A stretch of DNA of 63,184 nucleotides from Phycisphaerales bacterium (GCA_030748155.1 JASMMN010000024.1:1-63184); one strand, 5' to 3'. Positions 6,205-52,281 are shown, counted from the first letter of the stretch. Notes: generated from the sequence alone by a model not told the origin. Numbers and translations: made by a program.

Positions 6205-6234
6205 CGGGCTAGCGGCATCACAGGGAGACGCATC

Positions 6235-6978
6235 GTGGCACACACACCGAGACGAGCATTGGTAACGGGGGGGTCGAGCGGCATCGGCCGCGCGATTGCC
6301 CAGTCGCTCGCCCGTGACGGTTGCGATGTGGGCATCCTGTACCTCGGCGATCTCACAGATGCGGACTCCGTGAGATCGTGCATCGAATCACTCGGTCGCA
6401 AGACGTGGGTGAAGGTGGCTGATGTCTCCGACGCTCAGCAGGCCACAGCCGCGGTGGAGGATTGCGCTGGCGAACTCGGTGGGCTTGAAGTTCTCGTCAA
6501 CAACGCCGGCATCTGCCGCGATCAGGTGATTTGGAACATGACCGATGCGGAGTGGCAGGATGTCATCGACATCGATCTTACCGGCGTCTTCAACATGTCT
6601 CGGGCGGCGGCGCCCATCATGCGGGCAGCGAAGTATGGATCCATCGTCAACATCTCCAGCATCAACGGCATGCGGGGCAAGTTTGGCCAGACCAATTACG
6701 CCGCGGCAAAGGCTGGCGTCATCGGATTCACCAAGGCGCTCGCCAAGGAGTTGGCACGATCCACCGTGACCGTGAACGCCGTCGCGCCGGGGATGATCCA
6801 CACGCCCATTCTCGATGCCATGCCTCCCGAGGCAATCAAGAAGGCGACCGAGGAGATTCTTGTTGGCCGCATCGGCACACCCGAGGACATCGCCGAAGCA
6901 GTGCGCTTCCTGTGCAGCGAAGGAGCGAGATTCATCACCGGCGAAGTGCTTCGGGTAGACGGCGGGCAGTACATCTGA
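6235..6978 (+). CDS. Short-chain dehydrogenase/reductase (FabG/BadH-like hydroxy/oxo-acyl reductase)
   Basis: Motifs TGGSSGIGRAIA, NNAG and YAAAKAG (YxxxK). GTG start with GGGAG 7 nt upstream. Confidence 0.88.
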   Translation: MAHTPRRALVTGGSSGIGRAIAQSLARDGCDVGILYLGDLTDADSVRSCIESLGRKTWVKVADVSDAQQATAAVEDCAGELGGLEVLVNNAGICRDQVIWNMTDAEWQDVIDIDLTGVFNMSRAAAPIMRAAKYGSIVNISSINGMRGKFGQTNYAAAKAGVIGFTKALAKELARSTVTVNAVAPGMIHTPILDAMPPEAIKKATEEILVGRIGTPEDIAEAVRFLCSEGARFITGEVLRVDGGQYI

Positions 6979-6992
6979 AAAGGAATGATGAC

Positions 6993-7763
6993 ATGACCGA
7001 CTACCAGTACTTCACATGCGACATTTCCGGCGGCGTCGCCACGGTCACCATGAACCTTCCCCCGTTGAACGTCATGGACAACCCCATGATGTCCGAGTTC
7101 AACACACTCCTTGACACTCTGGTCGTGGACGACACCTTGTCTGCAATCGTGATTGCCGCCGAAGGCAAGGCCTTCAGCGCGGGCGTGGACGTCGCGGATC
7201 ACACGGCTGAGAAGGTTCGTGACATGATCGAGCAATTCCACGGCATCTTTCGCCGGCTCGCGTCCACCGATGCGCTCACCATTGCGGCCGTTCAGGGTGC
7301 TGCGCTCGGTGGCGGATGCGAACTCGCCTGCTTCTGTGACATCGTGCTCGCCTCGGAGCGGGCCAAGTTCGGGCAGCCTGAAGTTCATGTTGGCGTCTTC
7401 CCACCGGTCGCTGCGGTGGTGTTGCCGTCTCGCATTGGGCTCGGCAAGGCGATCGAACTCGTGTCGCTCGGCGGCACGATTTCGGCGACCGAAGCCCATC
7501 GGATCGGCCTCGTCAGTCAGTTGTACGTCGCAGACGAGTTCGACGACCAGGTTGCGGCCTACGTTGAGGACATCCGGGGCCTCTCCCGTCCCGTTGTGCG
7601 GATGGCAAAGCGGGTCACCATGGCCGGGCAGCGAGCGGACATGCTCAATCGGCTCGACGAGGCCGAAAAAATCTACCTCGATGAATTGATGCAACTCCAC
7701 GACGCTCACGAGGGCATCGCGGCATTCATGGAGAAACGAACCCCCGAGTGGAGCCACGCCTGA
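6993..7763 (+). CDS. Enoyl-CoA hydratase/isomerase family (256 aa); candidate dienoyl/enoyl-CoA hydratase (Dch/BadK-like)
   Basis: Motifs KAFSAGVDVADH, GAALGGGCELACFCD and FGQPEVHVGVFPP. ATG at 6993 with AAGGA 9 nt upstream. The longer track ORF (6531) runs through the SDR gene. Confidence 0.85.
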   Translation: MTDYQYFTCDISGGVATVTMNLPPLNVMDNPMMSEFNTLLDTLVVDDTLSAIVIAAEGKAFSAGVDVADHTAEKVRDMIEQFHGIFRRLASTDALTIAAVQGAALGGGCELACFCDIVLASERAKFGQPEVHVGVFPPVAAVVLPSRIGLGKAIELVSLGGTISATEAHRIGLVSQLYVADEFDDQVAAYVEDIRGLSRPVVRMAKRVTMAGQRADMLNRLDEAEKIYLDELMQLHDAHEGIAAFMEKRTPEWSHA

Positions 7764-7801
7764 GGGCCGGTTGGGCACATCAGAGAAAAGAGAACCGAAC
7801 G

Positions 7802-8824
7802 ATGAAAGCAGCAGTATTCCACGGCGCCGACGAAGGCGTGAGAGTCGAAGAGATCCCGGTCCCGCATGTTGGACGGGACGAGGTGCTCGTCAAGGTTGCC
7901 GCCTGCGGGGCCTGCCATACCGACCTGCACTACATCGAGCACGGCGTGCCGACCTTCAAGGATCCGCCGCTCGTGCTTGGCCACGAAGCGTCCGGTATCG
8001 TCGAGGAAGTCGGCATCGATGTCGAACATCTCACCGCGGGGCAGAGGGTGCTTATCCCCGCGGTACTCACCTGCGGCAAGTGCAGGTTTTGCCGCATGGG
8101 CAAGGAGAATATCTGTGCCGACATGAAGATGCTCGGCAACCACTTTGACGGCGCCTACGCCGAGTATGTCTGCGTACCCGCCAAGGATGTGCTTGATCTG
8201 CCCGAGTCGATTCCGCTTGCCGAGGCATCGATCATTGCCGACGCGTTATCGACGCCGTACCACGCCGTCAAGAACCGAGCACAGGTGCGGGCCGGCGATT
8301 CCGTGGCCGTCTTCGGATGTGGAGGTGTTGGCATCAACGCAGTGCAACTTGCGGCCGCGGCTGGCGCTTACGTGATTGCGGTCGATATCAGTGAGCAGAA
8401 ACTTGAGTGGGCCAAGGAACTCGGCGCGGCGCAGACCATCAACGCCCACCAGGTCGATCGGGTGAGCAAGGCAATCAAGAAGATGACTGGTGGTGGTGTC
8501 GATATCGCCATGGAGGTGATCGGTAACCCGCGGACGATCGAAGAAGCGTTCGAGAGCGTGCGAATCGGTGGTCGGATGTGCGTCGTCGGGTACACGCATG
8601 AGAAGATCAACATTGTCGCCGGGAAGATCATGTTCAAGGAGATGGAAATTGTCGGTTCGCTCGGATGTCCTCCGGGCGAGTATGTCCCGCTCATTCGCAT
8701 GGTCGAGGCCGGGAAGATCGATGTATCTCGCCTCGTGACGCACCGGTTCTCACTTGACGATATTCAGGGCGCATTCGATGTAATGAAGGACGGCTGCTCC
8801 CTGCGGTCGATCGTAATTCCGTGA
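7802..8824 (+). CDS. Zinc-dependent alcohol dehydrogenase family (340 aa); candidate 6-hydroxycyclohex-1-ene-1-carbonyl-CoA dehydrogenase (Had-like)
   Basis: Motifs CGACHTD, GHEASGIVEEVG, structural-Zn CGKCRFCRMGKENIC and FGCGGVGINAVQ. Confidence 0.85.
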   Translation: MKAAVFHGADEGVRVEEIPVPHVGRDEVLVKVAACGACHTDLHYIEHGVPTFKDPPLVLGHEASGIVEEVGIDVEHLTAGQRVLIPAVLTCGKCRFCRMGKENICADMKMLGNHFDGAYAEYVCVPAKDVLDLPESIPLAEASIIADALSTPYHAVKNRAQVRAGDSVAVFGCGGVGINAVQLAAAAGAYVIAVDISEQKLEWAKELGAAQTINAHQVDRVSKAIKKMTGGGVDIAMEVIGNPRTIEEAFESVRIGGRMCVVGYTHEKINIVAGKIMFKEMEIVGSLGCPPGEYVPLIRMVEAGKIDVSRLVTHRFSLDDIQGAFDVMKDGCSLRSIVIP

Positions 8825-10065
8825 GCGACACGACGGTGAAGCGAGTACCCATCGAGTCGCAGAAGCGCCTTCGAGGCCTGATGCGTGACTACTTCGTTGA
8901 CCTCGACGCGGCGGCCAAAGACACTGATCGCCGCGTTGCGTGGTGTACATCGGTCGGTCCTACGGAGATTTTGACCGCTTTCGGCTTCGACGTGTTCTTC
9001 CCGGAGAACCACGGCGCCCTCCTCGGCACGCGGAAAGTCAGCCACAAGTTGATCCCCCGGGCGGTGGGGGCGGGGTACTGCCCCGAGACCTGCTCTTACA
9101 TGAACAGCGATATCGGCGCATCGCTCAACGGTTGGAGTCCGCTGCAGGACATCTACGGCATAGACGGACCGCCCGCGCCCGATCTGCTCGTGTACAACAC
9201 GAACCAGTGCCGGGAAGTGCAGGACTGGTTCAAGTTCTTCTCGACACGGCACGACGCTTCAATTCTGGGGGTGCGGCCACCGCTGTATCTCGGAGAAGTC
9301 ACCGACGAGCATGTCACCTTCGTGAAGGGGCAACTTCGGGAACTCATCGGTGCGATCGAGCGTCAGTTCGAATTGAAACTCGATGAGGCGAAACTCGAAG
9401 AGTCCGTCGCGAAGTCGAGCAAGGCCTGTTCGCTTTGGCGGGAAGTACTCGAAACGGCCCGCCAGAGACCGGCCCCACTGAGTTTCTGGGACGGCTTGAT
9501 CCTGATGGCGCCGGTGATACTGATGCGTGGAAGCGATATGGCCATCGACTTCTACGAAGAAATGCTTGCTGAGATGAATCAACGGCTTGCTGGTGGCGTC
9601 GGAGCCGTGCCTGATGAGCGGTTTCGCATCTACTGGGAAGGGATGCCCGTCTGGCCCCGGATACGGGAACTTTCCGAGAAGTTCTTTGATCTTCGGGCGG
9701 TCGTGGCGGCGAGCACCTATTGCAACTCGTGGGCCTTCGCCGACTTCGAGGGCGGCGACCCGCTTGAGTGGATGGCGCGGACGAGTCTGGAGATCTTCAT
9801 CAATCGCGATGAGGTGTACAAGCAGCAGTTCCTGTCCGAGAGGTTCGACGAGTTTTCGATTGACGGCGCCATCTTCCACAACGCCCGGACATGCCCGAAC
9901 AACACCAACTCACGCTTTGGAATGGCTCAGCGGGTTCGTGAGGAGATGGGCCTGCCGGTTCTTGTCCTCGATGGAGACCTGACCGATATCCGGTTCTTTT
10001 CAACCTCGCAGTCGATGACCAATATCGAAGCCTTCATTGAGCAGTTGGAGGCACATCGCTCATGA
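8821..10065 (+). CDS. 2-hydroxyacyl-CoA dehydratase / benzoyl-CoA reductase (HgdAB/BcrBC) family protein, single copy (414 aa)
   Basis: Family-typical RRVAWCTSVGPTEILTAFGFDVFFPENHGA. Seven Cys including C42, C87, C91 and C130. GTGA overlap with the upstream stop. Confidence 0.8.
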   Translation: MSDTTVKRVPIESQKRLRGLMRDYFVDLDAAAKDTDRRVAWCTSVGPTEILTAFGFDVFFPENHGALLGTRKVSHKLIPRAVGAGYCPETCSYMNSDIGASLNGWSPLQDIYGIDGPPAPDLLVYNTNQCREVQDWFKFFSTRHDASILGVRPPLYLGEVTDEHVTFVKGQLRELIGAIERQFELKLDEAKLEESVAKSSKACSLWREVLETARQRPAPLSFWDGLILMAPVILMRGSDMAIDFYEEMLAEMNQRLAGGVGAVPDERFRIYWEGMPVWPRIRELSEKFFDLRAVVAASTYCNSWAFADFEGGDPLEWMARTSLEIFINRDEVYKQQFLSERFDEFSIDGAIFHNARTCPNNTNSRFGMAQRVREEMGLPVLVLDGDLTDIRFFSTSQSMTNIEAFIEQLEAHRS

Positions 10066-10910
10066 GTGGCGTCCTCTTTGCCGGTATCGACGCTGGATCC
10101 TCGGCCACCAAGTGTGTCATCATCGACGATAGGGGCACATTGGTCGGGAAGAGCGTCGTGTCCTCGGGGTTCAGTTACGAGGATGCGGCCAAGACGGTGC
10201 TGGGTGAGGCGTTGGCCGAAGCCGGGAGGTCGTCTGGGGACATCGAGGCATGTATCTCCACTGGGTACGGACGGGAGTGGGTTCCAGATGCCGGGCGGAA
10301 GATCACCGAGATCACCTGTCATGCCCGTGGCGCTCTTGAGTGGTATCCGCAGGTCCGCAACATCATCGACATCGGTGGTCAGGACACCAAAGTCATCCGT
10401 CTCGACACGACCGGGCAGATTTCTGACTACCGCATGAACGCCAAGTGCGCCGCAGGAACCGGAACATTTCTCGAATCCATCGCCGTGAAACTCGGCATGA
10501 CGCTTGGCGAACTCGACGAGCTCGCCGCGCAATCTGAGAAGCACGCCGTCATCAACAGTTATTGCACCGTCTTCGCCGGGACCGAGGTGCTTGAGTGCAT
10601 CAAGGCCGGCGAGGATCCCAAGGACATTGCCCGCGGATTGTTTCACTCGATCGCCTCGCGGCTCTTTGAGATGATTGTCTCCCATGACGGACCGGTGGCG
10701 GCGACGGGCGGCGTGGTGGCGCACTGCGGCTCGATGCGTGTGGCGCTCAACGAAGTGCTTGATGATGAAGTGTTGCTTCCGCCGCTTCCTCAGTTCGCGG
10801 GGGCCTTTGGTGCCGCGCTCATGGCCAACTCCGGCCACGCACACGAGCCGTTTGGCGAGCGGCCTGCGCCGCCGTGCCGGTTCTCGACCGAAGGGAGCGG
10901 CCAATGTTGA
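10062..10910 (+). CDS. BcrAD/BadFG/HgdC-family ATPase (electron-activating component, 282 aa)
   Basis: Motifs GIDAGSSATKCVII, DIGGQDTKVI, NAKCAAGTG and YCTVFAGTE (cluster-ligand Cys positions). ATGA overlap with the upstream gene. Confidence 0.88.
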   Translation: MSGVLFAGIDAGSSATKCVIIDDRGTLVGKSVVSSGFSYEDAAKTVLGEALAEAGRSSGDIEACISTGYGREWVPDAGRKITEITCHARGALEWYPQVRNIIDIGGQDTKVIRLDTTGQISDYRMNAKCAAGTGTFLESIAVKLGMTLGELDELAAQSEKHAVINSYCTVFAGTEVLECIKAGEDPKDIARGLFHSIASRLFEMIVSHDGPVAATGGVVAHCGSMRVALNEVLDDEVLLPPLPQFAGAFGAALMANSGHAHEPFGERPAPPCRFSTEGSGQC

Positions 10911-13900
10911 CCGCTGGACATCTCGGAATTCATCCGCCGGGCGCCCTCGGTGTCGGGTTATTCATGCATACGCATGCCGAGTGTCTTGTAGGCATGAGCC
11001 GGGACGGCATTACCGAGACTCTCAAGGAGGCTGGCCGCCTCAGACTTGAACACAACGGGCAGCAGCAGATCGTGTCCATCCATGGCCGCATCTTTGCGAA
11101 CTTGCTTGAGGCGGATGCAAAGAAGTTGCTCCCAGAACTCCTGCTGGTGTGCTGCAATCCGAATCAACTCGGGGCATTCACCGGCGAAGTAACGAGTTTT
11201 CTTGAGAACTCCGCCAGGCGAGGACTGCTGGATTCGCCGGAGCAGGTACGGCATCACATGCCGATTCTGCTCATCCTGCCCAACGGTGTGCTCTTCGAAT
11301 CGACATTCAGCGAATTCCAATCCCAACTCAATGAAGCCATTCTCATGGAACGGCTTCCAGGGGTCACCTCGGAAGTGCAGGCAGCTATCGAGGCTCGCCT
11401 GGTGCGGGGAATATCGCTTCAGGCAGGTGGGCGGCGCGGCAGCGGGGCGGACACGACCTATCTGCTTGAGAAGAAGGGCTCAATTGTGTTTGCTGGTGGC
11501 GGCGGCTTCGAACAAGAGCGAATCGCGGCGATCTTGCAGGCGCACGATTACCCGTTCACGCATGTACCGAACGCGCCGGCAACCCGCATTGAATTCGATA
11601 AGGCGATGATCTCGATTGTTCTCAATGTCGGTGGGCTCATTCACATGGTGAAACCAAGTGGCGAGTGCATCGATCTGCGAATGGGCGATCTCTGCCTTGA
11701 CCAGAGCAAAGACGAGTTTGTTCGGCAGATCACCAGGGGCGTATTCGACGTCGGGCAGGCCAACGGCGCCTACTCGTCTGACGCAACATGGGAAGAAGTG
11801 TGGGAAGGCCATCGCAATATCATTCTGAAGAACAAGGGACATGTGACCAGTTCGGTCAAGGATCTGTCCGTTGCGCTCAATCGCGGGCTGGAGAGCGTCA
11901 GACTGTTCACAAACGAAGAATGGATTCTCGAGCCGCTACAGCGGTACGCGGCGCTGGCGGATATGCAGGCCGAGCGATCGATGTTCAAGGATCTGGCGAA
12001 GCAAGTGCAGCAAGCAATAGCCCGAGCCATCAAGTTTCGGAGGGATAAGGGCGGAACCGGGGCAAGGAGCAGAACAATGAAACTGAGTGCGCAGCGCAAT
12101 ATCAACATCGATCTCTACGAGGACGGTGATGAGCACCTCGTGTTGGTGGGTACGTTCCACGACAGCGAGCATCTCATTCGCCTTGAAGTTGCCATCGGCG
12201 TGGCCGAACGCCAAATACTGCGAAGCGATCTGAACATGATCCGTTCACCATTCCCCGTGTGCAGCGAGGTCAAGAAAACAGCCCAACTCCTCGTAGGACT
12301 TCGAGTCGAGCGAGGAGTGCTGAACGAAATCAGTTCCCGGCTTGGTGGCCGGACAGGGTGCTCACACATCAGAGAGATCGCGGCATCGATCATGCAGTTC
12401 GTCGCGACCTATCTCGTGCGGATCCGCGCCGGCGTGCGGCCCTTCGATGAAGAGTTCCTCCGCGAGCCGGCGGAAGACCGGTTTCGCCTGACACGAGAGT
12501 TGTTGCAGGACAGTTGTCTTGCGTACTCGCAACTTACCGTCCATGGACTCGATGAGAAGGTCGGCATTCGACGACTCGGCGAAGAGCATGGATCGCCCAT
12601 CGAACTTGGGGAGCATGAAGTTTCCATAGGCGCGCTTATCCGGGACAGGATGTCTCGGTGGGGCGACCGCGTATGTACGAAGTACCGCATACTCGACGAT
12701 GAGCATGAACTTACCTGGAGCGAACTGGGAGACCGTGTTGCCCGGGTGGGTCGCCATTTGATCGAACGCGACATTCACCCCGGCGATCGCATTGGCATCG
12801 TGTCCGAAAACCGGGTCGAAATGCTGATTCTGGAACTGGCCATTCAGTCGATCGGTGCCGTCACTGTTCCTGTGTTTGCCGGATATCCGGCCCCACTGGT
12901 CGGATATGTCATTCGCCACGCGAAGCCGCGAATGCTGGTCGTATCGAACATGAAGCAACTCGACAAGATTGATCGCAACCAACATGACTTCATTGAATCC
13001 TGTTTCTGCATGGATGCCTCCGACGCCACACGCGCTTGGGGCGCGGTGGACTTCGATTCCTTACTCGCCGATGGCGGCGCGCCGCTGCTCGAATACGAGA
13101 GCCGAGTCAATGCGGTTGGTGCCGACGATCGTTGTCTCGTGATGTACACATCCGGCACGACCGGTCCGCCCAAGGGCGTATGTCTGAGCCACCGAAACCT
13201 CATTTCTCAGCAGAAGGCGATCTCGCTTATCTGGGACATCAATCAGGAAGACGTGATGTTGAGTTTCCTGCCGTGGCACCACAGTTTCGGTGGGCTGTTT
13301 GAGCGATTCATGGCCCTCTACAACGGGTGCATCCTCGGACTCGACGACTCTCGTGGCCGTGACATGGACCGGTTGCTCGACAATTGGCGGCGGTATCGAC
13401 CGACGATCTTCTTCAGCGTTCCACGGGTACATCAATCACTGCTCAACCGCTGCCGGGAATGCGAAACTTGCGAACAGAGTGTGTTTCATGATCGCCTGCG
13501 ACTCGTTTTCACCGCCGGTGCGCCGCTGCCGGCCGGAGTCGAGCAGGCATACCGTGACTACGACATTCAGGTGTTCGAAGGCTTTGGACTGACCGAGACA
13601 TCGCCTTGCGTCACCGTCACAAGTCCTGATCGCAAGTGGCGAAGCGGATACGTGGGATTTCCGATTCCCGGCGTCACGATCCGCATCGACAGCGATCAGG
13701 AGATCCTGGTGCAGGGTCCCAATGTAATGGCCGGATACCTTGACGACGAGGACGCTACGAGCCGGGTGATTGATGATCACGGCTGGTTCCACACCGGCGA
13801 TCTTGGTGAATTCACTCGCGATGGACTTCGCATTCTGGGCCGCAAGGACGGTGCGTTCAAGTTGACAACCGGCGAGAAAGTGCATCCGCAACGGGTTGAG

Positions 13901-14317
13901 AACACGCTGGTCAACGAATCACCGTTCATCGGCACCGCGGTGGTCATCGGAAGTGGGAAGGACTTTGTGTCAACGCTCGTCTTCCCCGACTTCGTGCGGC
14001 TTCAAGCGTGGGCGGATGAGCAGGGCATTCATGCGCCGGTCTTGACGGACGACCCCACCATCCGTGAACTCTTCGCGACCGAAGTCGCCCGGATCAACCC
14101 GCGGATCGAGGTCAAGTATCAACGCGTCAGGCGCGTGATTCTGGCGGGGCGAGACCCCTCCCTGGAACGTGGAGAACTCACCCCGTCCGCCAAGATCGTC
14201 CGGCAGCGGGTCTTCGATTCATTCAAGCATGAGATCGAAGAACTCTTCAAATCGGTTCCTTCCGACCTTGTCATCGAGATACAAGAACAACCATTGGCAG
14301 GAGAATTGGCGCGATGA
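10904..14317 (+). CDS. Tri-domain fusion: PanE/ApbA-like oxidoreductase, DUF2889-like middle domain, and AMP-forming acyl-CoA synthetase (FAA1/FadD type)
   Basis: N-terminal LGIHPPGALGVGL, LLLVCCNPNQL, ILLILPNGV and FDKAMISIVLN are ketopantoate-reductase-like. The middle region has GRTGCSHIREI. The C-terminus has YTSGTTGPPKGV, GFGLTETS, WFHTGDLG and LTPSAKIVRQ. ATG at 10904 follows GGGAG and overlaps the upstream stop (ATGTTGA). Confidence 0.8.
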   Translation: MLTAGHLGIHPPGALGVGLFMHTHAECLVGMSRDGITETLKEAGRLRLEHNGQQQIVSIHGRIFANLLEADAKKLLPELLLVCCNPNQLGAFTGEVTSFLENSARRGLLDSPEQVRHHMPILLILPNGVLFESTFSEFQSQLNEAILMERLPGVTSEVQAAIEARLVRGISLQAGGRRGSGADTTYLLEKKGSIVFAGGGGFEQERIAAILQAHDYPFTHVPNAPATRIEFDKAMISIVLNVGGLIHMVKPSGECIDLRMGDLCLDQSKDEFVRQITRGVFDVGQANGAYSSDATWEEVWEGHRNIILKNKGHVTSSVKDLSVALNRGLESVRLFTNEEWILEPLQRYAALADMQAERSMFKDLAKQVQQAIARAIKFRRDKGGTGARSRTMKLSAQRNINIDLYEDGDEHLVLVGTFHDSEHLIRLEVAIGVAERQILRSDLNMIRSPFPVCSEVKKTAQLLVGLRVERGVLNEISSRLGGRTGCSHIREIAASIMQFVATYLVRIRAGVRPFDEEFLREPAEDRFRLTRELLQDSCLAYSQLTVHGLDEKVGIRRLGEEHGSPIELGEHEVSIGALIRDRMSRWGDRVCTKYRILDDEHELTWSELGDRVARVGRHLIERDIHPGDRIGIVSENRVEMLILELAIQSIGAVTVPVFAGYPAPLVGYVIRHAKPRMLVVSNMKQLDKIDRNQHDFIESCFCMDASDATRAWGAVDFDSLLADGGAPLLEYESRVNAVGADDRCLVMYTSGTTGPPKGVCLSHRNLISQQKAISLIWDINQEDVMLSFLPWHHSFGGLFERFMALYNGCILGLDDSRGRDMDRLLDNWRRYRPTIFFSVPRVHQSLLNRCRECETCEQSVFHDRLRLVFTAGAPLPAGVEQAYRDYDIQVFEGFGLTETSPCVTVTSPDRKWRSGYVGFPIPGVTIRIDSDQEILVQGPNVMAGYLDDEDATSRVIDDHGWFHTGDLGEFTRDGLRILGRKDGAFKLTTGEKVHPQRVENTLVNESPFIGTAVVIGSGKDFVSTLVFPDFVRLQAWADEQGIHAPVLTDDPTIRELFATEVARINPRIEVKYQRVRRVILAGRDPSLERGELTPSAKIVRQRVFDSFKHEIEELFKSVPSDLVIEIQEQPLAGELAR

Positions 14318-15564
14318 GCGACCAGAGTGCAACATCATTCGTGATTTCAGGTGCCGCCCGGACACCCGTGGGCGTCAAGTGTGGCACGCTCAGCAACTTC
14401 TCTCCCGAGGATCTCGCGGTCGCGGCGGCGAACGAATCTATCAAGCGGGCAGGAATAGAGCGTGATTGCATTGATGCCACCTACGGCGGCAACGTCTATC
14501 AATTCACCTCGCCGGGGGGGCAGGACATCTACTTCCCCCGCAATGTCGCACTTCGGTGCGAGTTACCGATCGATACACCATCGCTGCTCGTACAGCGAAT
14601 CTGTGGTTCAGGTTTCCAGACGGTCGTCAGCGCCATGCATCAGATTGCCATGCCGTCGTCAATGGACGACACAAGAGTTGCGCTGTGCTTTGGTGCCGAG
14701 ACCATGTCCAGGGCTCCGCGGCTGAGCAGGGCGCCCCGCCTCTCCGGAGCGGATTTCTGGGAGTTCGGATCCAACGGTACGCTCGAGGACACGATTCTCG
14801 CCGGTCTCAACCATGACCTCTTCAATACCAGCATGATGGTGACAGCCGATGAATACGGCCACAGCGTCGGTGTGACGCGCGAAGAGTGCGACGCCTTCGC
14901 CGAAGAGTCGCACCGCCGGGCGAGAGAAGCCAACCGAGTGAGTCACCTCAACGGCGGCGATGCCCTCCGGGGCATGTTTGCCTTCGAGGCGGACAACCTC
15001 GCGGGCGAGCCGGTCTACCTCGCCCACGATGAGTGTGTGCGTGACACAACTCTTGACGAACTGTCCAGGCTTCCAGGGTTTACACCCAACGACCTTGTTT
15101 CGCCGGGCAACGCCAGCGAGATCAGCGATGCCGCCGCTTCGCTCGTGGTAGCGGATCGGTCGCGAGCCGAGAAACTTGGGATTTCGACTCGTTTTGAAAT
15201 CGTCGGCTATGGCATCGCGGGCGTCGAGCCGCGGTTGATGGGTCGCGGGCCAGTACCCGCCATTCACCGTGCGCTTGAGCGAACGGGCCTGTCGATAGAT
15301 GACATCGGCCTGTGGGAAGTCAACGAGGCTTTCGCCGCCCAAGCAGTTGGTGTGCAGAAGGAACTCGGACTCGACAGCGAGAGACTCAACGTGAACGGCG
15401 GCGCGGTTGCTATCGGGCATCCCCTTGCGGCGACCGGGGCGAGACTACTTGTGGACCTCATGTACGAAATGGAACGACGAGGAGAGCCGCTCGGATGCGC
15501 CTCTGCCTGCATCGGTGGCGGCCAAGGCATCGCCGTCATCATCAGAGACACCCAACGGGATTGA
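14314..15564 (+). CDS. Acetyl-CoA C-acyltransferase (thiolase)
   Basis: Motifs RICGSGFQ (active-site Cys), [20 protein letters not shown] and [13 protein letters not shown] overlap with the upstream gene. Confidence 0.9.
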
Positions 15565-15588
15565 GTCCCAATTACACGGAAGCAAGCC

Positions 15589-18066
15589 ATGAAACAAGCA
15601 TTCCACTACGGCAACAAGACGATTGACCCCGCTGTCAAACGGGTCAATGCCATCAAACGCGTGGCGGTGATTGGCGCAGGAACCATGGGCCAGGGCATTG
15701 TCATCGATCTGCTGCTCAAGACCGAGGCCGAGGTCGTAGTGCTCGACATCAACGACGCCTCGCTTGGGCGAGCCAAGAAGACAATCTCCGGACGTTGGAA
15801 GGGCGATGTCCAGGGCTTCCGGTTGCGAGCCGAAGATGTCGAGTCTATGGAAGCGAGGACCATCTACACAACCGACTATGCGGAACTGGCCGGATGCAAC
15901 ATCATCTGGGAGGCTGTCACCGAGTCGGTTGATGTAAAGTCGAAGATCTTTGCGATTATCGAAGAGACTGTCGCGCCGGAAGCCGTCGACGCGATCTTCT
16001 CGAACACGTCCTCGCATACCACCGAGGAACTCGCGGTACTGTTCACATCCGAGGTGTTTCGTAGCAAACTGCTGACCGTTCACGGGTACTTCCCCTTTGA
16101 GGCGAACCGGCTCATCGATGTCATGAAGGGGAAGTACGCCTCTCGCGAAACCTTCGACTTTGGTGTTGTCTTTGCCGATCAGATTCTCGAGAAAACCGTG
16201 ATCGCGATGCCGCGTGATCACCACGGCTACATCACCGACCCCATCTTTCAAGGCATGGGCGCCATCGTGTCGTGGGACGTGCAGAGTGGTGACGACATCG
16301 TGATTCGCGGCGGTGTCTGGAATCTCTTCACGGCCAACCCCTTCACCGTGCTCGATCAGACCGGTCACATGCCATACACCGAATCGTCAAGGCATCTCGG
16401 CGCGGCGCTCCCGGCACATGATCGTCTGCGGTGCCTCTACAGCCGGGACGGCAAGGCCATTCCGGACTGGATTGCTGAATTGGAGTCACGTGGCTGCGGT
16501 GGCGTGAATTCCAAGGAGGGCAGTGGCTTCTTTCGGTGGAGCGAGGGCAAGCGATCAAAGCCCGCGCAGGTCTTCGACCCCAAGAGCGGCGACTATGTTG
16601 ATATCTGCGGAATCTCCCGCGATGAATACTGGTCGTGGTACGAGGCTGCCGAGCGAGATCGCCGGGCCGGAAAAATCAAGAGCGCCGATTCGATCGTCCA
16701 TGTGGCCAACGCCGACGATCTCGGCGGACGGTGCTTCCGTCGGTACGTGCTTCCCATCGCGCTCTACATGCTCGACCTTGTGCAGGATGGCTACGCCACG
16801 CCCGGGCAGATCAATATCTGCACGCGGGCAGGGCTTCGTTTCAAGGTAGGCATTATCGAGATGATCGATGCATTGATTGCGGAGTTCACCATCGATGGGC
16901 TGTTGCAACTGGTCCGCAGGGCCGCCGACGAGAATGCCGACGACCCATATGCCACCGAATTACTTGATACCGATGGGAAGATCGGGCCACGCACTGGCAA
17001 GCCATGCCTGCTGCATGAAATGAAGAAGCGGGGAATCGACCGGCTTCTCGGGTACGGAACGGCCTATTGCACGCCTGTTGCCGAACTTGACCTCAAGAGC
17101 GGCACCTACGTGGCCTGCTATCCGGACCTGAAGTTCGTGGGGCCCAACCCGAAGGATCGCGTCGCAAGCATCATCTTCAACTCACCGATGCGAGGCAATG
17201 TCTTCAACCGGGCGGCGGTCGATCAACTTGGCCACGCCTACCGCCGTGCGCTCGACTTGCACCGTGAGGGCAAGTGTGGGGCGGTCGTGTTTACCGCTGC
17301 GGGTACCGGCATGCGAATGCTCGGAGCCGACGCCCGTGAGTTCAATCGCGGCTGGTTTGAGCGGGACCGCGGGTACGCCCCGCTAACCGAAATCGAAGCG
17401 GCCGCCTCCAGCAAAAATGCCGTTGGGCTCTTCCGGCTCATCCAGACCAGCCCGCTCGCCACCATTGCCGTGTTCGGGGAGAAGTGGGGCGGCGGAGCCG
17501 AGTTCACCTACTTCTCGGATTTGCGTTTCGATGTTCGCCAATACGGATTTGTGTACGACACGCTTGAGCGAGTGTCCAAGTGGCAGCAGAAGAACACCTA
17601 CAACCAACCCGAGCTCGACTACGCCATACTTCCCGGCTTCGGCGGGGCGGGCGAGTTGAAACGACTTGGAATGGGCGACTCGATCATCTTCGAACTCTTT
17701 GACTGCGGCATGACCGCAGACCGCGCCTATCAGGTCGGGCTCACAAACGGCATCTTTGATGAGGAGGTCGATGCGCTTCGCCGTGGGTATGAGTCAGCCC
17801 GCCAGATGGCGAAGGACGCGCCCTACTCGCGAGCACTCTTCAAGAAGGAGTTGCAGCGAGGTATTGACGACGAGGCCCTCGCCCGCGAGACCGGCGAGAC
17901 CTTCAATCCCGAGAAGAATCCATTCATCCGTTCTGGCCTCGTGAAGTTGCTTGACCGCGGCGCGAGGCCACCGAAGATGGATTACTCATGTATCGGCACC
18001 GAGTTGCCGGGTTGGACCTATCCCGAGGACAGCACGCAGTGCACCTGCGGGGAGTCATGCTCATGA
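15589..18066 (+). CDS. Bifunctional 3-hydroxyacyl-CoA dehydrogenase (N-terminal) / enoyl-CoA hydratase (C-terminal), 825 aa
   Basis: N-terminal [13 protein letters not shown] Rossmann motif. C-terminal crotonase fold ([35 protein letters not shown]). Cys-rich tail. Confidence 0.85.
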
Positions 18067-19223
18067 CCGTTTTCAACGAATGGGGAGGCGAACCCCTCGA
18101 CGAGATCATGTACCACTGCCGGGAACTCGTAGAGGACACGACGTTCCCCACCATCAAGCGGTGGCGTGAGCAGGGCGGAAAGACGCTCGGACACTTTCAA
18201 GTGTATTTCCCAGAGGAACTCGCACATGCGGCGGGCATGATGCCCGTCAAGATGTGCGGGACGATGCTCGAGCCGAACAACGCCGATTCTCATTTCGGAT
18301 CCTACCTCTGCTCGATCATCAAGACCTCGCTCGAAGCAGCCCTGTCAGGCGGCATTGAACTCGACATTTTCGTGTCGCACCCAATCTGTGACGCGGCCCG
18401 GAATCTCGCTGCAATCTTCGGTCGGAACTTCGACTATCCGTGTCAGATTCTCTACCTGCCGCAGAATCCAAACTCGGTGGCCTCGGCGGACTGGCTTTCT
18501 CAGGAATACGGTCGCATGCGTCGGTTGATCGAAGAAATCGTGGGCCACGAGGTGAGCGACGAGGCGATCTCTGTGTCAATCGAGGTGTTCAACGAGAACC
18601 GCCGGTTGATGCGGGAACTCTACGAGATCAAACGCGAGGCGCCTTGGCTTGTGACCGCCGACGAGGCATACGCCCTTGTCGCCATCGGCGGCGTGATTCC
18701 CCGAGAGGAGCACAACGATCTGCTTTCGTCTGTGCTTCCGATGCTTCGGGAGCGGGAGACGCGGCGAGAGGATCGTATTCGCGTGGTTTTTGAGGGCGCC
18801 TTCTGCGAGCAGCCGCCGCTCGACCTTGTACGGATGCTTGGTCGCACCTGCTATGTCGTCGATGACGACTTCTTGATCGGCATGCGGTATCTCCTCGAAG
18901 ATGTGCCGGTGACGGACAACCCACTGTTGTCCCTGTCAGAGGCGTACATCGAACAATCCAGTTACAGCCCGGTACAGCATGACAACCGCAAGCCCAAGGA
19001 GGACATGCTCCTGCAACGGATCAAGGAGTCGCGGGCAGACGCCGCCATCGTGGCGGCTGCCAAGATGTGCGAGCCGGGGCTTGAGGAGCAAGTCGCCTAT
19101 ATCCACATGCTCGATGACGAGAAAATCCCGTACTTCGTCAGTGAATTCGAAGAGAACATGAGTTCGTTCGATCAACTTGAACTCCAGATTGAGACATTCC
19201 TGGAGAACATCCTCTTTGCCTGA
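18063..19223 (+). CDS. Benzoyl-CoA reductase subunit C-like (BcrC/BadD/BzdN family, 386 aa)
   Basis: FPTIKRWREQGGKTLGHFQVYFPEELAHAAGMMPVKMCG and SHFGSYLCSIIKTSLE match the BcrC-type N-terminus. ATGA overlap with the upstream stop, with GGGGAG upstream. Confidence 0.8.
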   Translation: MTVFNEWGGEPLDEIMYHCRELVEDTTFPTIKRWREQGGKTLGHFQVYFPEELAHAAGMMPVKMCGTMLEPNNADSHFGSYLCSIIKTSLEAALSGGIELDIFVSHPICDAARNLAAIFGRNFDYPCQILYLPQNPNSVASADWLSQEYGRMRRLIEEIVGHEVSDEAISVSIEVFNENRRLMRELYEIKREAPWLVTADEAYALVAIGGVIPREEHNDLLSSVLPMLRERETRREDRIRVVFEGAFCEQPPLDLVRMLGRTCYVVDDDFLIGMRYLLEDVPVTDNPLLSLSEAYIEQSSYSPVQHDNRKPKEDMLLQRIKESRADAAIVAAAKMCEPGLEEQVAYIHMLDDEKIPYFVSEFEENMSSFDQLELQIETFLENILFA

Positions 19224-47620: not shown

Positions 47621-48871
47621 TCAATCCCGTTGGGTGTCTCTGATGATGACGGCGATGCCTTGGCCGCCACCGATGCAGGCAGAGGCGCATCCGAGCGGCT
47701 CTCCTCGTCGTTCCATTTCGTACATGAGGTCCACAAGTAGTCTCGCCCCGGTCGCCGCAAGGGGATGCCCGATAGCAACCGCGCCGCCGTTCACGTTGAG
47801 TCTCTCGCTGTCGAGTCCGAGTTCCTTCTGCACACCAACTGCTTGGGCGGCGAAAGCCTCGTTGACTTCCCACAGGCCGATGTCATCTATCGACAGGCCC
47901 GTTCGCTCAAGCGCACGGTGAATGGCGGGTACTGGCCCGCGACCCATCAACCGCGGCTCGACGCCCGCGATGCCATAGCCGACGATTTCAAAACGAGTCG
48001 AAATCCCAAGTTTCTCGGCTCGCGACCGATCCGCTACCACGAGCGAAGCGGCGGCATCGCTGATCTCGCTGGCGTTGCCCGGCGAAACAAGGTCGTTGGG
48101 TGTAAACCCTGGAAGCCTGGACAGTTCGTCAAGAGTTGTGTCACGCACACACTCATCGTGGGCGAGGTAGACCGGCTCGCCCGCGAGGTTGTCCGCCTCG
48201 AAGGCAAACATGCCCCGGAGGGCATCGCCGCCGTTGAGGTGACTCACTCGGTTGGCTTCTCTCGCCCGGCGGTGCGACTCTTCGGCGAAGGCGTCGCACT
48301 CTTCGCGCGTCACACCGACGCTGTGGCCGTATTCATCGGCTGTCACCATCATGCTGGTATTGAAGAGGTCATGGTTGAGACCGGCGAGAATCGTGTCCTC
48401 GAGCGTACCGTTGGATCCGAACTCCCAGAAATCCGCTCCGGAGAGGCGGGGCGCCCTGCTCAGCCGCGGAGCCCTGGACATGGTCTCGGCACCAAAGCAC
48501 AGCGCAACTCTTGTGTCGTCCATTGACGACGGCATGGCAATCTGATGCATGGCGCTGACGACCGTCTGGAAACCTGAACCACAGATTCGCTGTACGAGCA
48601 GCGATGGTGTATCGATCGGTAACTCGCACCGAAGTGCGACATTGCGGGGGAAGTAGATGTCCTGCCCCCCCGGCGAGGTGAATTGATAGACGTTGCCGCC
48701 GTAGGTGGCATCAATGCAATCACGCTCTATTCCTGCCCGCTTGATAGATTCGTTCGCCGCCGCGACCGCGAGATCCTCGGGAGAGAAGTTGCTGAGCGTG
48801 CCACACTTGACGCCCACGGGTGTCCGGGCGGCACCTGAAATCACGAATGATGTTGCACTCTGGTCGCTCAT
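47621..48871 (-). CDS. Thiolase (mirror copy)
   Basis: Exact mirror of 14314..15564. Confidence 0.9.
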
Positions 48872-51800
48872 CGCGCCAATTCTCCTGCCAATGGTTGTTC
48901 TTGTATCTCGATGACAAGGTCGGAAGGAACCGATTTGAAGAGTTCTTCGATCTCATGCTTGAATGAATCGAAGACCCGCTGCCGGACGATCTTGGCGGAC
49001 GGGGTGAGTTCTCCACGTTCCAGGGAGGGGTCTCGCCCCGCCAGAATCACGCGCCTGACGCGTTGATACTTGACCTCGATCCGCGGGTTGATCCGGGCGA
49101 CTTCGGTCGCGAAGAGTTCACGGATGGTGGGGTCGTCCGTCAAGACCGGCGCATGAATGCCCTGCTCATCCGCCCACGCTTGAAGCCGCACGAAGTCGGG
49201 GAAGACGAGCGTTGACACAAAGTCCTTCCCACTTCCGATGACCACCGCGGTGCCGATGAACGGTGATTCGTTGACCAGCGTGTTCTCAACCCGTTGCGGA
49301 TGCACTTTCTCGCCGGTTGTCAACTTGAACGCACCGTCCTTGCGGCCCAGAATGCGAAGTCCATCGCGAGTGAATTCACCAAGATCGCCGGTGTGGAACC
49401 AGCCGTGATCATCAATCACCCGGCTCGTAGCGTCCTCGTCGTCAAGGTATCCGGCCATTACATTGGGACCCTGCACCAGGATCTCCTGATCGCTGTCGAT
49501 GCGGATCGTGACGCCGGGAATCGGAAATCCCACGTATCCGCTTCGCCACTTGCGATCAGGACTTGTGACGGTGACGCAAGGCGATGTCTCGGTCAGTCCA
49601 AAGCCTTCGAACACCTGAATGTCGTAGTCACGGTATGCCTGCTCGACTCCGGCCGGCAGCGGCGCACCGGCGGTGAAAACGAGTCGCAGGCGATCATGAA
49701 ACACACTCTGTTCGCAAGTTTCGCATTCCCGGCAGCGGTTGAGCAGTGATTGATGTACCCGTGGAACGCTGAAGAAGATCGTCGGTCGATACCGCCGCCA
49801 ATTGTCGAGCAACCGGTCCATGTCACGGCCACGAGAGTCGTCGAGTCCGAGGATGCACCCGTTGTAGAGGGCCATGAATCGCTCAAACAGCCCACCGAAA
49901 CTGTGGTGCCACGGCAGGAAACTCAACATCACGTCTTCCTGATTGATGTCCCAGATAAGCGAGATCGCCTTCTGCTGAGAAATGAGGTTTCGGTGGCTCA
50001 GACATACGCCCTTGGGCGGACCGGTCGTGCCGGATGTGTACATCACGAGACAACGATCGTCGGCACCAACCGCATTGACTCGGCTCTCGTATTCGAGCAG
50101 CGGCGCGCCGCCATCGGCGAGTAAGGAATCGAAGTCCACCGCGCCCCAAGCGCGTGTGGCGTCGGAGGCATCCATGCAGAAACAGGATTCAATGAAGTCA
50201 TGTTGGTTGCGATCAATCTTGTCGAGTTGCTTCATGTTCGATACGACCAGCATTCGCGGCTTCGCGTGGCGAATGACATATCCGACCAGTGGGGCCGGAT
50301 ATCCGGCAAACACAGGAACAGTGACGGCACCGATCGACTGAATGGCCAGTTCCAGAATCAGCATTTCGACCCGGTTTTCGGACACGATGCCAATGCGATC
50401 GCCGGGGTGAATGTCGCGTTCGATCAAATGGCGACCCACCCGGGCAACACGGTCTCCCAGTTCGCTCCAGGTAAGTTCATGCTCATCGTCGAGTATGCGG
50501 TACTTCGTACATACGCGGTCGCCCCACCGAGACATCCTGTCCCGGATAAGCGCGCCTATGGAAACTTCATGCTCCCCAAGTTCGATGGGCGATCCATGCT
50601 CTTCGCCGAGTCGTCGAATGCCGACCTTCTCATCGAGTCCATGGACGGTAAGTTGCGAGTACGCAAGACAACTGTCCTGCAACAACTCTCGTGTCAGGCG
50701 AAACCGGTCTTCCGCCGGCTCGCGGAGGAACTCTTCATCGAAGGGCCGCACGCCGGCGCGGATCCGCACGAGATAGGTCGCGACGAACTGCATGATCGAT
50801 GCCGCGATCTCTCTGATGTGTGAGCACCCTGTCCGGCCACCAAGCCGGGAACTGATTTCGTTCAGCACTCCTCGCTCGACTCGAAGTCCTACGAGGAGTT
50901 GGGCTGTTTTCTTGACCTCGCTGCACACGGGGAATGGTGAACGGATCATGTTCAGATCGCTTCGCAGTATTTGGCGTTCGGCCACGCCGATGGCAACTTC
51001 AAGGCGAATGAGATGCTCGCTGTCGTGGAACGTACCCACCAACACGAGGTGCTCATCACCGTCCTCGTAGAGATCGATGTTGATATTGCGCTGCGCACTC
51101 AGTTTCATTGTTCTGCTCCTTGCCCCGGTTCCGCCCTTATCCCTCCGAAACTTGATGGCTCGGGCTATTGCTTGCTGCACTTGCTTCGCCAGATCCTTGA
51201 ACATCGATCGCTCGGCCTGCATATCCGCCAGCGCCGCGTACCGCTGTAGCGGCTCGAGAATCCATTCTTCGTTTGTGAACAGTCTGACGCTCTCCAGCCC
51301 GCGATTGAGCGCAACGGACAGATCCTTGACCGAACTGGTCACATGTCCCTTGTTCTTCAGAATGATATTGCGATGGCCTTCCCACACTTCTTCCCATGTT
51401 GCGTCAGACGAGTAGGCGCCGTTGGCCTGCCCGACGTCGAATACGCCCCTGGTGATCTGCCGAACAAACTCGTCTTTGCTCTGGTCAAGGCAGAGATCGC
51501 CCATTCGCAGATCGATGCACTCGCCACTTGGTTTCACCATGTGAATGAGCCCACCGACATTGAGAACAATCGAGATCATCGCCTTATCGAATTCAATGCG
51601 GGTTGCCGGCGCGTTCGGTACATGCGTGAACGGGTAATCGTGCGCCTGCAAGATCGCCGCGATTCGCTCTTGTTCGAAGCCGCCGCCACCAGCAAACACA
51701 ATTGAGCCCTTCTTCTCAAGCAGATAGGTCGTGTCCGCCCCGCTGCCGCGCCGCCCACCTGCCTGAAGCGATATTCCCCGCACCAGGCGAGCCTCGATAG

Positions 51801-52281
51801 CTGCCTGCACTTCCGAGGTGACCCCTGGAAGCCGTTCCATGAGAATGGCTTCATTGAGTTGGGATTGGAATTCGCTGAATGTCGATTCGAAGAGCACACC
51901 GTTGGGCAGGATGAGCAGAATCGGCATGTGATGCCGTACCTGCTCCGGCGAATCCAGCAGTCCTCGCCTGGCGGAGTTCTCAAGAAAACTCGTTACTTCG
52001 CCGGTGAATGCCCCGAGTTGATTCGGATTGCAGCACACCAGCAGGAGTTCTGGGAGCAACTTCTTTGCATCCGCCTCAAGCAAGTTCGCAAAGATGCGGC
52101 CATGGATGGACACGATCTGCTGCTGCCCGTTGTGTTCAAGTCTGAGGCGGCCAGCCTCCTTGAGAGTCTCGGTAATGCCGTCCCGGCTCATGCCTACAAG
52201 ACACTCGGCATGCGTATGCATGAATAACCCGACACCGAGGGCGCCCGGCGGATGAATTCCGAGATGTCCAGCGGTCAACAT
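48868..52281 (-). CDS. PanE-like / DUF2889-like / acyl-CoA synthetase tri-domain fusion (mirror copy)
   Basis: Exact mirror of 10904..14317. Confidence 0.8.
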   Translation of the reverse strand: MLTAGHLGIHPPGALGVGLFMHTHAECLVGMSRDGITETLKEAGRLRLEHNGQQQIVSIHGRIFANLLEADAKKLLPELLLVCCNPNQLGAFTGEVTSFLENSARRGLLDSPEQVRHHMPILLILPNGVLFESTFSEFQSQLNEAILMERLPGVTSEVQAAIEARLVRGISLQAGGRRGSGADTTYLLEKKGSIVFAGGGGFEQERIAAILQAHDYPFTHVPNAPATRIEFDKAMISIVLNVGGLIHMVKPSGECIDLRMGDLCLDQSKDEFVRQITRGVFDVGQANGAYSSDATWEEVWEGHRNIILKNKGHVTSSVKDLSVALNRGLESVRLFTNEEWILEPLQRYAALADMQAERSMFKDLAKQVQQAIARAIKFRRDKGGTGARSRTMKLSAQRNINIDLYEDGDEHLVLVGTFHDSEHLIRLEVAIGVAERQILRSDLNMIRSPFPVCSEVKKTAQLLVGLRVERGVLNEISSRLGGRTGCSHIREIAASIMQFVATYLVRIRAGVRPFDEEFLREPAEDRFRLTRELLQDSCLAYSQLTVHGLDEKVGIRRLGEEHGSPIELGEHEVSIGALIRDRMSRWGDRVCTKYRILDDEHELTWSELGDRVARVGRHLIERDIHPGDRIGIVSENRVEMLILELAIQSIGAVTVPVFAGYPAPLVGYVIRHAKPRMLVVSNMKQLDKIDRNQHDFIESCFCMDASDATRAWGAVDFDSLLADGGAPLLEYESRVNAVGADDRCLVMYTSGTTGPPKGVCLSHRNLISQQKAISLIWDINQEDVMLSFLPWHHSFGGLFERFMALYNGCILGLDDSRGRDMDRLLDNWRRYRPTIFFSVPRVHQSLLNRCRECETCEQSVFHDRLRLVFTAGAPLPAGVEQAYRDYDIQVFEGFGLTETSPCVTVTSPDRKWRSGYVGFPIPGVTIRIDSDQEILVQGPNVMAGYLDDEDATSRVIDDHGWFHTGDLGEFTRDGLRILGRKDGAFKLTTGEKVHPQRVENTLVNESPFIGTAVVIGSGKDFVSTLVFPDFVRLQAWADEQGIHAPVLTDDPTIRELFATEVARINPRIEVKYQRVRRVILAGRDPSLERGELTPSAKIVRQRVFDSFKHEIEELFKSVPSDLVIEIQEQPLAGELAR

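Follow-up and report, generated by a model that had tools for sequence, protein, structure and literature searches.

In a 63,184-nucleotide stretch of DNA from a Phycisphaerales bacterium (GCA_030748155.1 JASMMN010000024.1:1-63184, the whole of which is referred to below as the window), a single open reading frame (ORF) on the plus strand joins a PanE-like domain, a DUF2889 domain and an acyl-CoA synthetase in one protein of 1137 amino acids and 127 kDa (10904..14317, with the ATG at 10904 and the stop codon at 14315-14317). At the boundary between the first two domains lies an in-frame ATG (12077..12079, plus strand), which encodes Met392 and is preceded, at a distance of 7 nucleotides, by the Shine-Dalgarno (SD) sequence AAGGAG (12064..12069, plus strand). 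Comparison across 81 species argues that this internal initiation region is under strong purifying selection and is not decaying, and one mRNA probably yields two proteins, the full-length 127-kDa form and an 84-kDa form of 746 amino acids that is predicted to start at Met392 and to consist of DUF2889 and ligase. Taken as a whole, the reading of this gene as one with two starts, whose ligase would serve pathway entry and whose N-terminal domain would be an oxidoreductase, is in our judgement likely to be correct.

Under the two-start reading, a gene for a PanE-fold oxidoreductase and an adjacent gene for a DUF2889-acyl-CoA synthetase would have been fused in an ancestor of the Phycisphaerae by loss of a stop codon, so that the SD sequence and ATG of the downstream gene would now lie within a disordered inter-domain linker and would still be in use. 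Initiation at 10904, coupled to the activase gene upstream, would produce the 127-kDa PanE-like/DUF2889/ligase protein, and initiation at 12077 would produce the 84-kDa DUF2889/ligase protein. The ligase domain would be a catalytically competent adenylate-forming CoA ligase that makes the CoA thioester entering the pathway, and the PanE-like domain, as an NAD(P)H-dependent 2-oxo-acid/2-hydroxy-acid oxidoreductase, would process the acid that the ligase is about to activate. The long isoform would thereby couple reduction to activation, and the short isoform would activate acids that need no reduction.

The tri-domain fusion and its junction

The protein begins with a PanE/ApbA-fold domain (residues 1-381, 10904..12046), supported by AlphaFold2, Foldseek and hhalign, which is followed by a disordered linker (residues 382-391, 12047..12076, with a predicted local distance difference test score (pLDDT) below 50 at residues 385-391) that carries the internal SD sequence. 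The DUF2889 domain occupies residues about 392-540 (12077..12523), with the Pfam match at 422-498, and the AMP-forming acyl-CoA synthetase (12644..14254) contains the Pfam domains AMP-binding at residues 581-946 and AMP-binding_C_3 at residues 986-1117; all of these features are on the plus strand. The first ATG is itself preceded, 6 nucleotides upstream, by an SD-like AAGGGAG (10891..10897, plus strand), and it overlaps the 3' end of the activase gene (stop codon at 10908-10910), suggesting that the two genes are translationally coupled. An alternative in-frame GTG upstream, at 10874, would extend the protein to 1147 amino acids. An earlier note on this DNA, made from the sequence alone, had described a 1137-residue tri-domain fusion at 10904-14317 with an AAGGAG-N7-ATG motif at 12064-12079, on the boundary between the PanE-like and DUF2889-like parts, and both descriptions proved accurate, the first agreeing with the ORF, the Pfam domains and the comparison of loci that follows, and the second with the location of the motif and of its ATG at codon 392.

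When one genome per GTDB species was scanned, 107 stretches were found to encode a relative, and 80 of these loci were fetched for comparison. In tblastn alignments the whole 1137-residue protein matched as one collinear segment, in one frame, in 80/80 loci unless the contig ended, and the orthologue ORFs that reach a stop codon (69, or 70 with the window's own) are 1125-1179 amino acids long. Identity to the window protein is about 0.6 in all three domains alike and only 0.17-0.19 in linker residues 382-391. A word-indexed protein search with residues 1-570 returned 26 proteins, the long enough of which share the same domains; they come from metagenome-assembled genomes of Phycisphaerae/Planctomycetota, except for one labelled Bipolaricaulota, which may be mis-binned. 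These comparisons argue that the tri-domain fusion is real and ancient. The opposite view, that an assembly or sequencing artefact joined separate ORFs, could appeal to the fact that the window itself is an artefactual palindrome (see below), and to the frameshifts or truncations carried by the database homologues P0012, P0025 and P0004. We regard it as extremely improbable, given the same uninterrupted frame in 80 independent assemblies of different species, and the presence of 98-99% of the 31-mers of the fusion gene in several seawater runs. An indel that falsely joins two ORFs, which the earlier note had named as a finding that would overturn the fusion, was looked for in these 80 collinear, single-frame loci, and none was found.

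The defective database entries were also inspected individually. P0004 (707 amino acids), P0012 (692 amino acids), P0025 and P0026 have truncated or frameshifted tails within the DUF2889/ligase part, and these look like single-contig assembly or sequencing errors, not natural split forms.

The junction itself can be placed by comparison with proteins that carry only one side of it. The free-standing N-domain homologue P0032 (394 amino acids) matches residues 4-388, its end falling within the linker, and the free-standing DUF2889 protein P0163 (156 amino acids) has its Met1 in register with Met392. The coincidence of this end and this start suggests that two adjacent genes were fused by loss of a stop codon, in keeping with the proposal in the earlier note that the junction marks the start of a formerly separate gene. 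Orthologues split at the 12077 ATG, for which that note had recommended a search, were not found among the 80 loci examined.

Selection on the internal initiation site

Orthologous proteins differ at about 40% of their residues, and the linker around codon -4, counted from the internal ATG, is nearly randomised. At the internal start, Met392 is encoded by ATG in 81/81 sequences, nucleotide -11 is G in all 81, and nucleotides -12 and -10 are purines in all 81. Codon -4 is AGG in 42 sequences, AGA in 1, GGA in 31 and GGG in 7 (n = 81), and it is never CGN, GGC or GGT, compared with a background elsewhere in the same genes in which AGR makes up 6.1% of arginine codons and GGR 34% of glycine codons. 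If the sequences were independent, the probability of this codon usage would be near 1e-52 for arginine and 1e-18 for glycine, although shared ancestry weakens both figures. Because the amino acids of the linker are poorly conserved, yet the codons that form the SD sequence are fixed, selection appears to act on the internal ribosome-binding site.

Other properties of the site were also compared with those of the genes as a whole. The mean energy of the duplex formed with the anti-SD sequence is -7.1 kcal/mol at the internal site, which is close to that at the genes' own starts (-7.2 kcal/mol) and well apart from that at 1965 other in-frame ATGs (-2.6 kcal/mol), and among 11 conserved methionine columns a strong SD sequence is present at column 392 alone. 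AAA is used for 44/52 of the lysines that directly follow Met392, compared with 24% elsewhere. In 96% of sequences the folding energy of the 50-nucleotide region around the internal ATG is weaker than is average for the gene, and the local GC content is 55%, against 62%. An in-frame start with an SD sequence 5-10 nucleotides away is kept across the orthologues beyond what the protein sequence needs, and purifying selection of this kind strengthens the idea that the internal product is made. Neither a sigma-70-like promoter nor a terminator-like site was found within the fusion gene. A second internal start, at the boundary between DUF2889 and the ligase, was considered and rejected, as no conserved methionine with an SD sequence is located there.

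The earlier note had called the internal ribosome-binding site and start a relic; they are present as it described, and their strong conservation, both of the ATG and of codon choice, is at odds with the word relic. If they were a non-functional remnant of the fusion, only the 127-kDa protein would be made, and the motif would have persisted by chance or through phylogenetic inertia. Consistent with this possibility, the RNA runs that were searched included none with the fusion sequence, so that the short product rests on comparison, and SD-like strings forced by the encoded residues occur elsewhere in the gene, for example before columns 897-898, 361 and 203. Such forcing does not account for a linker with 17-19% identity in which G at -11 and purines at -12 and -10 are found in 81/81 sequences, or for the choice of AGR for arginine at codon -4 in 43/43 cases, against a 6% background, and of GGR for glycine in 38/38, against 34%. 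Inertia would be unable to hold synonymous sites over about 40% protein divergence, and initiation is also signalled independently by AAA as the second codon and by the weak local structure. We therefore consider a decayed, silent start very unlikely.

The SD-like element might instead act during elongation, either by causing a pause at the domain boundary that aids folding of the N-terminal domain or by regulating ribosome traffic, with the methionine having a structural role. Its location exactly at a domain boundary, within a disordered linker, fits such a role. Spacing of 7-9 nucleotides to an invariant ATG, an A-rich spacer, the AAA codon and reduced structure are, by contrast, the signature of initiation, and a free-standing homologue has its Met1 at the position of this ATG. 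Later ribosome-profiling work has reportedly cast doubt on SD-induced pausing in vivo, which also counts against this role. A purely elongational function is thus less likely still, and we rate it as highly improbable.

The existence of internal in-frame initiation is already known, and in bacteria it produces in-frame isoforms of ClpB, IF2, CheA and SpaO/YscQ. Many internal starts have been mapped by ribosome profiling with retapamulin (bioRxiv 10.1101/520783). Like the known genes of this type, the fusion has an in-frame ATG with its own SD sequence at a domain boundary, and a predicted N-terminally truncated isoform. It differs from them in that the evidence is purely comparative, though deep (81 species), and in that free-standing homologues of both sides allow the site to be followed back to a gene-fusion junction.

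The three domains and their predicted activities

Searches with sequence models did not place the N-terminal domain. Pfam reported nothing above threshold for this part of the protein, the best match being ApbA_C (E = 0.09, 13.6 bits against a cut-off of 22.7) with no match to ApbA, and an NCBIfam scan of residues 1-391 gave no match above threshold. Searches of PDB sequences, with a single query in phmmer and with a 13-sequence profile in hmmsearch, retrieved no ketopantoate reductase and chance matches only, and when the narrow 13-sequence profile was aligned to E. coli PanE alone, hhalign gave a probability of 0.6%. Structure was more informative. An AlphaFold2 model built with the family alignment had a pLDDT of 88 and a predicted template modelling (TM) score of 0.85, and each of its 47 best Foldseek matches in the PDB was either a PanE/ApbA ketopantoate reductase or a D-mandelate dehydrogenase (E from 3e-13 to about 8e-9, TM-score on the target 0.61-0.79, identity 9-16%). 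Profile comparison agreed, since a 57-sequence family profile, broadened by 44 cluster-representative matches, aligned to a profile of two PanE sequences, one from E. coli and one from P. aeruginosa, over 283 columns with E = 6e-6, although with a probability of only 68%. The earlier note had assigned this part of the protein to a resemblance with 2-dehydropantoate reductase, and had allowed that the PanE-like and DUF2889 assignments would fall if hidden Markov model (HMM) searches failed to support them; Pfam does fail for the PanE-like part, but structure and profile comparison overrule that failure, and DUF2889 passes.

Residues of PanE were then mapped onto the domain, with the reservation that the mapping rests on the 68%-probability hhalign alignment. 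In the dinucleotide loop, Gly7 of PanE is changed to Pro11, and Gly9 and Gly12 are kept as Gly13 and Gly16. The GxGxxG motif is thus replaced by HPPGALG (PxGxxG), with proline for the first glycine, a degeneracy that the earlier note had pointed out and that proved to be conserved in homologues throughout the family. Lys72 and Asn180 are also changed, to Asn85 and Ser237, and the counterparts of Asn98 (Asn127), Lys176 (Lys233), Asn184 (Asn241) and Ser244 (Ser316) are invariant in the family; Glu256 corresponds to Glu339, whose neighbour Glu338 is invariant. On the basis of the model and these alignments, the N-terminal domain is best described as a strongly diverged member of the PanE fold, in which the glycine loop is altered and most of the catalytic set appears to be intact. 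It shares with the PanE/ApbA reductases and D-mandelate dehydrogenases (1ks9, 2ofp, 5hws, 5ayv, 3wfj, 8wl3) a Rossmann lobe and an all-helical, 6PGDH-like C-terminal lobe. It differs from PanE/ApbA in being about 80 residues longer, in the PxGxxG loop and the Lys72 and Asn180 replacements, and in its fusion to DUF2889 and a CoA ligase, and its free-standing relatives pair with genes for ACT-domain proteins.

An HMM search of 1.84 billion cluster representatives with the N-terminal domain gave 134 matches. Free-standing homologues are about 390 amino acids long (E = 1e-63 to 1e-46), and Pfam annotates no domain in those that were scanned. Members of the family are also fused N-terminally to NDP-forming CoA-ligase domains (Succ_CoA_lig/Ligase_CoA) in proteins of about 1060 amino acids (P0092, P0099, P0105). 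Because its catalytic residues appear to be retained and its family is repeatedly fused to CoA ligases, the domain is most likely an NAD(P)H-dependent 2-oxo/2-hydroxy-acid oxidoreductase, as judged from sequence relationships.

The same features can be read in another way, in which the domain is a ligand-binding or regulatory module, for example a sensor of CoA or of an adenine nucleotide, that tunes the ligase and leaves the short isoform unregulated. Proline in place of the first glycine of GxGxxG throughout the family is compatible with a regulatory module, as are the fusion of the family to two unrelated kinds of CoA ligase, the occurrence among the structural matches of an archaeal ketopantoate reductase crystallised with CoA (5ayv), and the location of free-standing homologues beside genes for ACT domains, which are ligand-sensing. 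The apparent conservation of the counterparts of PanE Asn98, Lys176, Asn184, Ser244 and Glu256 would be unexpected in a pure binding module, and we consider a regulatory role unlikely, though it is the strongest of the competing explanations.

Several gene contexts were recorded for this family. The free-standing homologues P0032, P0033 and P0037 (about 395 amino acids) each directly follow a gene for a double-ACT-domain protein of about 135 amino acids (the pairs span L082 522-2117, L083 967-2579 and L084 362-1969), and the ACT gene and PanE-like gene look like a conserved two-gene module. The gene for P0092 (L085 8001-11201) follows one for a 929-amino-acid carboxyltransferase. Three very large proteins with the N-terminal domain (P0069, P0080, P0073) were set aside, as their domain mixes are incoherent and they are probably eukaryotic or mis-called.

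The second domain is identified by Pfam PF11136 at residues 422-498 (E = 4e-13; 50.1 bits with the full-length protein and 55.8 bits with the segment excised, the cut-off being 25), in agreement with the earlier note, in which residues about 392-520 were called DUF2889-like. A word-indexed protein search with the DUF2889 profile returned 7 proteins, and the excised segment matches the free-standing P0163 with 27% identity (E = 1e-21). His423, Cys453, Cys486-Ser-His488 and Cys538 are invariant across the orthologues, and the positions of the Cys, Cys-x-His and Cys recur in the distant P0163, a pattern that suggests a metal site. The AlphaFold2 model of the domain, a four-stranded sheet with helices, is mediocre (pLDDT 64). 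The 156-amino-acid free-standing DUF2889 gene itself (L086 1395-1865) is located between an SDR gene and a hemerythrin gene.

In the third domain, AMP-binding (PF00501) is matched at residues 581-946 with 263 bits and E = 4e-78, and AMP-binding_C_3 (PF23562) at residues 986-1117 with 42.6 bits. The core motifs A3, A5, A7, A8 and A10 are present as TSGTTGPPKG, FGLTE, TGD, GRKD and PSAK, the last with the C-terminal lysine, and the earlier description of an FAA1/FadD-type adenylate-forming ligase with intact core motifs is borne out by both Pfam and the motifs. Like the FAA1/FadD-type ANL synthetases (FadD11-like PRK12582; MatB, PDB 4fuq), it has a full-length AMP-binding domain, a C-terminal domain and all core motifs; unlike them, it carries a 575-residue N-terminal extension with two extra domains, and it reaches no equivalog cut-off. 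The ligase most likely makes the CoA thioester that enters the pathway, a role predicted from its sequence and context.

A number of observations weigh against one part or another of the two-start reading. Support for the short isoform is purely comparative, with none of the searched RNA runs carrying the fusion sequence. For the oxidoreductase assignment, the mapping of catalytic residues depends on an alignment of modest probability, and the changes at Pro11, Asn85 and Ser237 mean that cofactor binding or chemistry may differ from that of PanE. For DUF2889, the Foldseek search of the PDB with the model returned no significant match (best E = 0.13). For the ligase, the NCBIfam matches, to FadD and long-chain ligase families, were all below threshold, and no equivalog cut-off was reached (the best family, FadD11, scored 245 bits against 950), benzoate-CoA ligase was not among the best 25 of 106 NCBIfam families, and the nearest solved ligases, with modest scores, are malonyl-, feruloyl- and oxalyl-CoA synthetases. 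As the scores are modest, no equivalog is matched, and genes for a thiolase and a fused dehydrogenase/hydratase are adjacent (compare pimA, which is located by pimB and pimF), the enzyme could, by analogy, activate a ring-cleavage dicarboxylate in a pimA-like manner instead.

The gene cluster, its predicted pathway and the window

The fusion gene lies within a conserved Phycisphaerae cluster for a pathway of the benzoyl-CoA type, which includes a BcrCBAD set resembling class-I benzoyl-CoA reductase as well as beta-oxidation genes. The cluster spans 406-4907 on the minus strand and 4927-22193 on the plus strand, and its gene order is conserved in loci L004-L080. A molybdenum (Mo)-hydroxylase, the FAD subunit that belongs to it and a regulator of the TetR type are encoded on the minus strand. 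The plus strand reads, in order, EchA, SDR, (thiolase), EchB, Zn-ADH, (HGD-D, activase), fusion, thiolase, 3HCDH-ECH fusion, two HGD-D genes and BcrAD-type ATPases, where the genes in parentheses occur in only some loci. The BcrAD-type ATPases number one or two per locus, with two in the window (20557-22193). Immediately upstream of the fusion are genes for an HGD-D protein and an acyl-CoA dehydratase activase (8821..10910, plus strand); the activase gene is directly upstream in 41/67 loci, and the pair is present in about two-thirds of loci. Immediately downstream are genes for a thiolase and a fused 3-hydroxyacyl-CoA dehydrogenase/enoyl-CoA hydratase (14314..18066, plus strand), with the thiolase gene directly following the fusion in 51/59 loci. 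Many loci that lack the HGD-D/activase pair have an extra thiolase-like gene between SDR and EchB.

The best NCBIfam matches of the neighbours are all below equivalog cut-offs, except that of the activase, suggesting that the true ring substrate may differ from benzoate. The 961-amino-acid Mo-hydroxylase is closest to the alpha subunit of 4-hydroxybenzoyl-CoA reductase fused to gamma (902 bits against a cut-off of 995), EchA to Oah, and Zn-ADH to Had. EchB best matches a generic enoyl-CoA hydratase, with Dch (cyclohexa-1,5-dienecarbonyl-CoA hydratase) second, and the downstream pair of HGD-D proteins best match BcrC and BcrB. The upstream HGD-D is closest to the alpha subunit of 2-hydroxyisocaproyl-CoA dehydratase and also resembles homodimeric double-cubane reductases, and its partner reaches the cut-off for acyl-CoA dehydratase activase. 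The cluster is followed by XdhC-like and MobA-like genes (23741-25440, plus strand), which are probably for maturation of the Mo cofactor of the 4-hydroxybenzoyl-CoA-reductase-like enzyme. The rest of the 31.6 kb of unique sequence holds, besides these cofactor-maturation genes, a gene for a glutaryl-CoA-dehydrogenase-like ACAD, and unrelated genes. No other AMP-binding gene was found in the unique 31.6 kb, so that the fusion is the only CoA ligase of the operon, as the earlier note had stated. The further proposal in that note, that the ligase selects the substrate of the pathway, is presumed from this context.

The neighbours have their best or second-best matches among proteins of anaerobic benzoyl-CoA clusters of the Thauera/Rhodopseudomonas type (bcrCBAD, dch/had/oah, hcrCAB, pim), and the trio of ligase, thiolase and fused dehydrogenase/hydratase is also shared. 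The differences are that the host belongs to the Phycisphaerae, that the matches are below equivalog cut-offs, that the ligase is a tri-domain fusion and not of the benzoate-CoA ligase type, and that an extra HGD-D gene and activase gene precede the fusion in about two-thirds of loci. In the portions of the literature that were accessible, no link between Phycisphaerae and benzoyl-CoA reductase was found.

Because the fusion gene adjoins the genes for a dehydratase-like HGD-D protein and its activase, a route from 2-oxo acid to 2-hydroxy acid, 2-hydroxyacyl-CoA and enoyl-CoA can be imagined, in which the long isoform would serve as an entry enzyme that channels two successive steps and accepts aromatic 2-oxo acids formed from Phe or Tyr. 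An acid of the arylpyruvate type would first be reduced to the (R)-2-hydroxy acid by the PanE-like domain. The ligase would then form the CoA ester of this product, the HGD-D protein and activase would dehydrate the ester to the enoyl-CoA, and beta-oxidation would give (4-hydroxy)benzoyl-CoA for the Mo reductase and benzoyl-CoA reductase. Aromatic acids that need no such preparation would be left to the short isoform, with DUF2889 gating the ligase through a Cys3His metal site. The HGD-D/activase pair is missing from roughly one-third of loci, which retain the full fusion all the same, and the resemblance of the upstream HGD-D to homodimeric double-cubane reductases also argues against this route. 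Known dehydratases use two different HGD-D subunits, and a single one is present here. We therefore hold the complete scheme to be quite unlikely, but were it true, it would mean that 2-hydroxyacyl-CoA dehydratase chemistry can be reached by a new route that depends on a ligase, and that marine Phycisphaerae have an unrecognised capacity for anaerobic degradation of aromatic amino acids.

In public databases, proteins with this fusion are named only 'AMP-binding protein' or 'DUF2889 domain-containing protein'. The earlier note knew of no description of the architecture, and a literature search likewise found no paper on the PanE-like/DUF2889/ligase combination, the mentions of DUF2889 being unrelated. 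What is new is this domain combination, a PanE-fold family that is not modelled by Pfam, and the depth of comparative evidence for an internal start at a traceable junction. The gene represents an unusually clean natural fusion, as the ribosome-binding site of the downstream gene has been kept within the joined ORF, under codon-level selection across 81 species. From it follows a prediction open to direct testing, namely that two isoforms are made in an uncultured lineage. The PanE-fold family, which has about 134 cluster representatives and no Pfam match on the domain in those that were scanned, is repeatedly fused to two unrelated classes of CoA ligase, suggesting a functional link of the oxidoreductase-like domain with carboxylate activation, and DUF2889 gains its first firm functional neighbourhood. 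The substrate of the ligase would show which aromatic or alicyclic acids are consumed without oxygen by the widespread marine Phycisphaerae, the planctomycetes of seawater metagenomes.

The window is its own reverse complement with 0 mismatches, composed of 2 x 31,592 bases around a centre at 31592/31593, so that every gene appears twice in mirror image; the second copy of the fusion ORF (48868..52281, minus strand) belongs to the artefactual second arm. Logan contigs from seawater metagenomes end at the centre (31578-31597), suggesting that the palindrome arose when the assembly folded back on itself at a short inverted repeat present in the natural sequence (...GGTGGCGATCGTCAATTGACGATCGCCACC...). 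The palindrome leaves the fusion finding unaffected because the gene lies well inside one arm. Five long ORFs, at 1363-3021 on the plus strand and at 25244-25939, 26034-26897, 26912-27817 and 29113-30198 on the minus strand, were rejected as spurious, being antisense to real genes and having no Pfam match; spurious antisense ORFs of this kind are typical of DNA with 60% GC.

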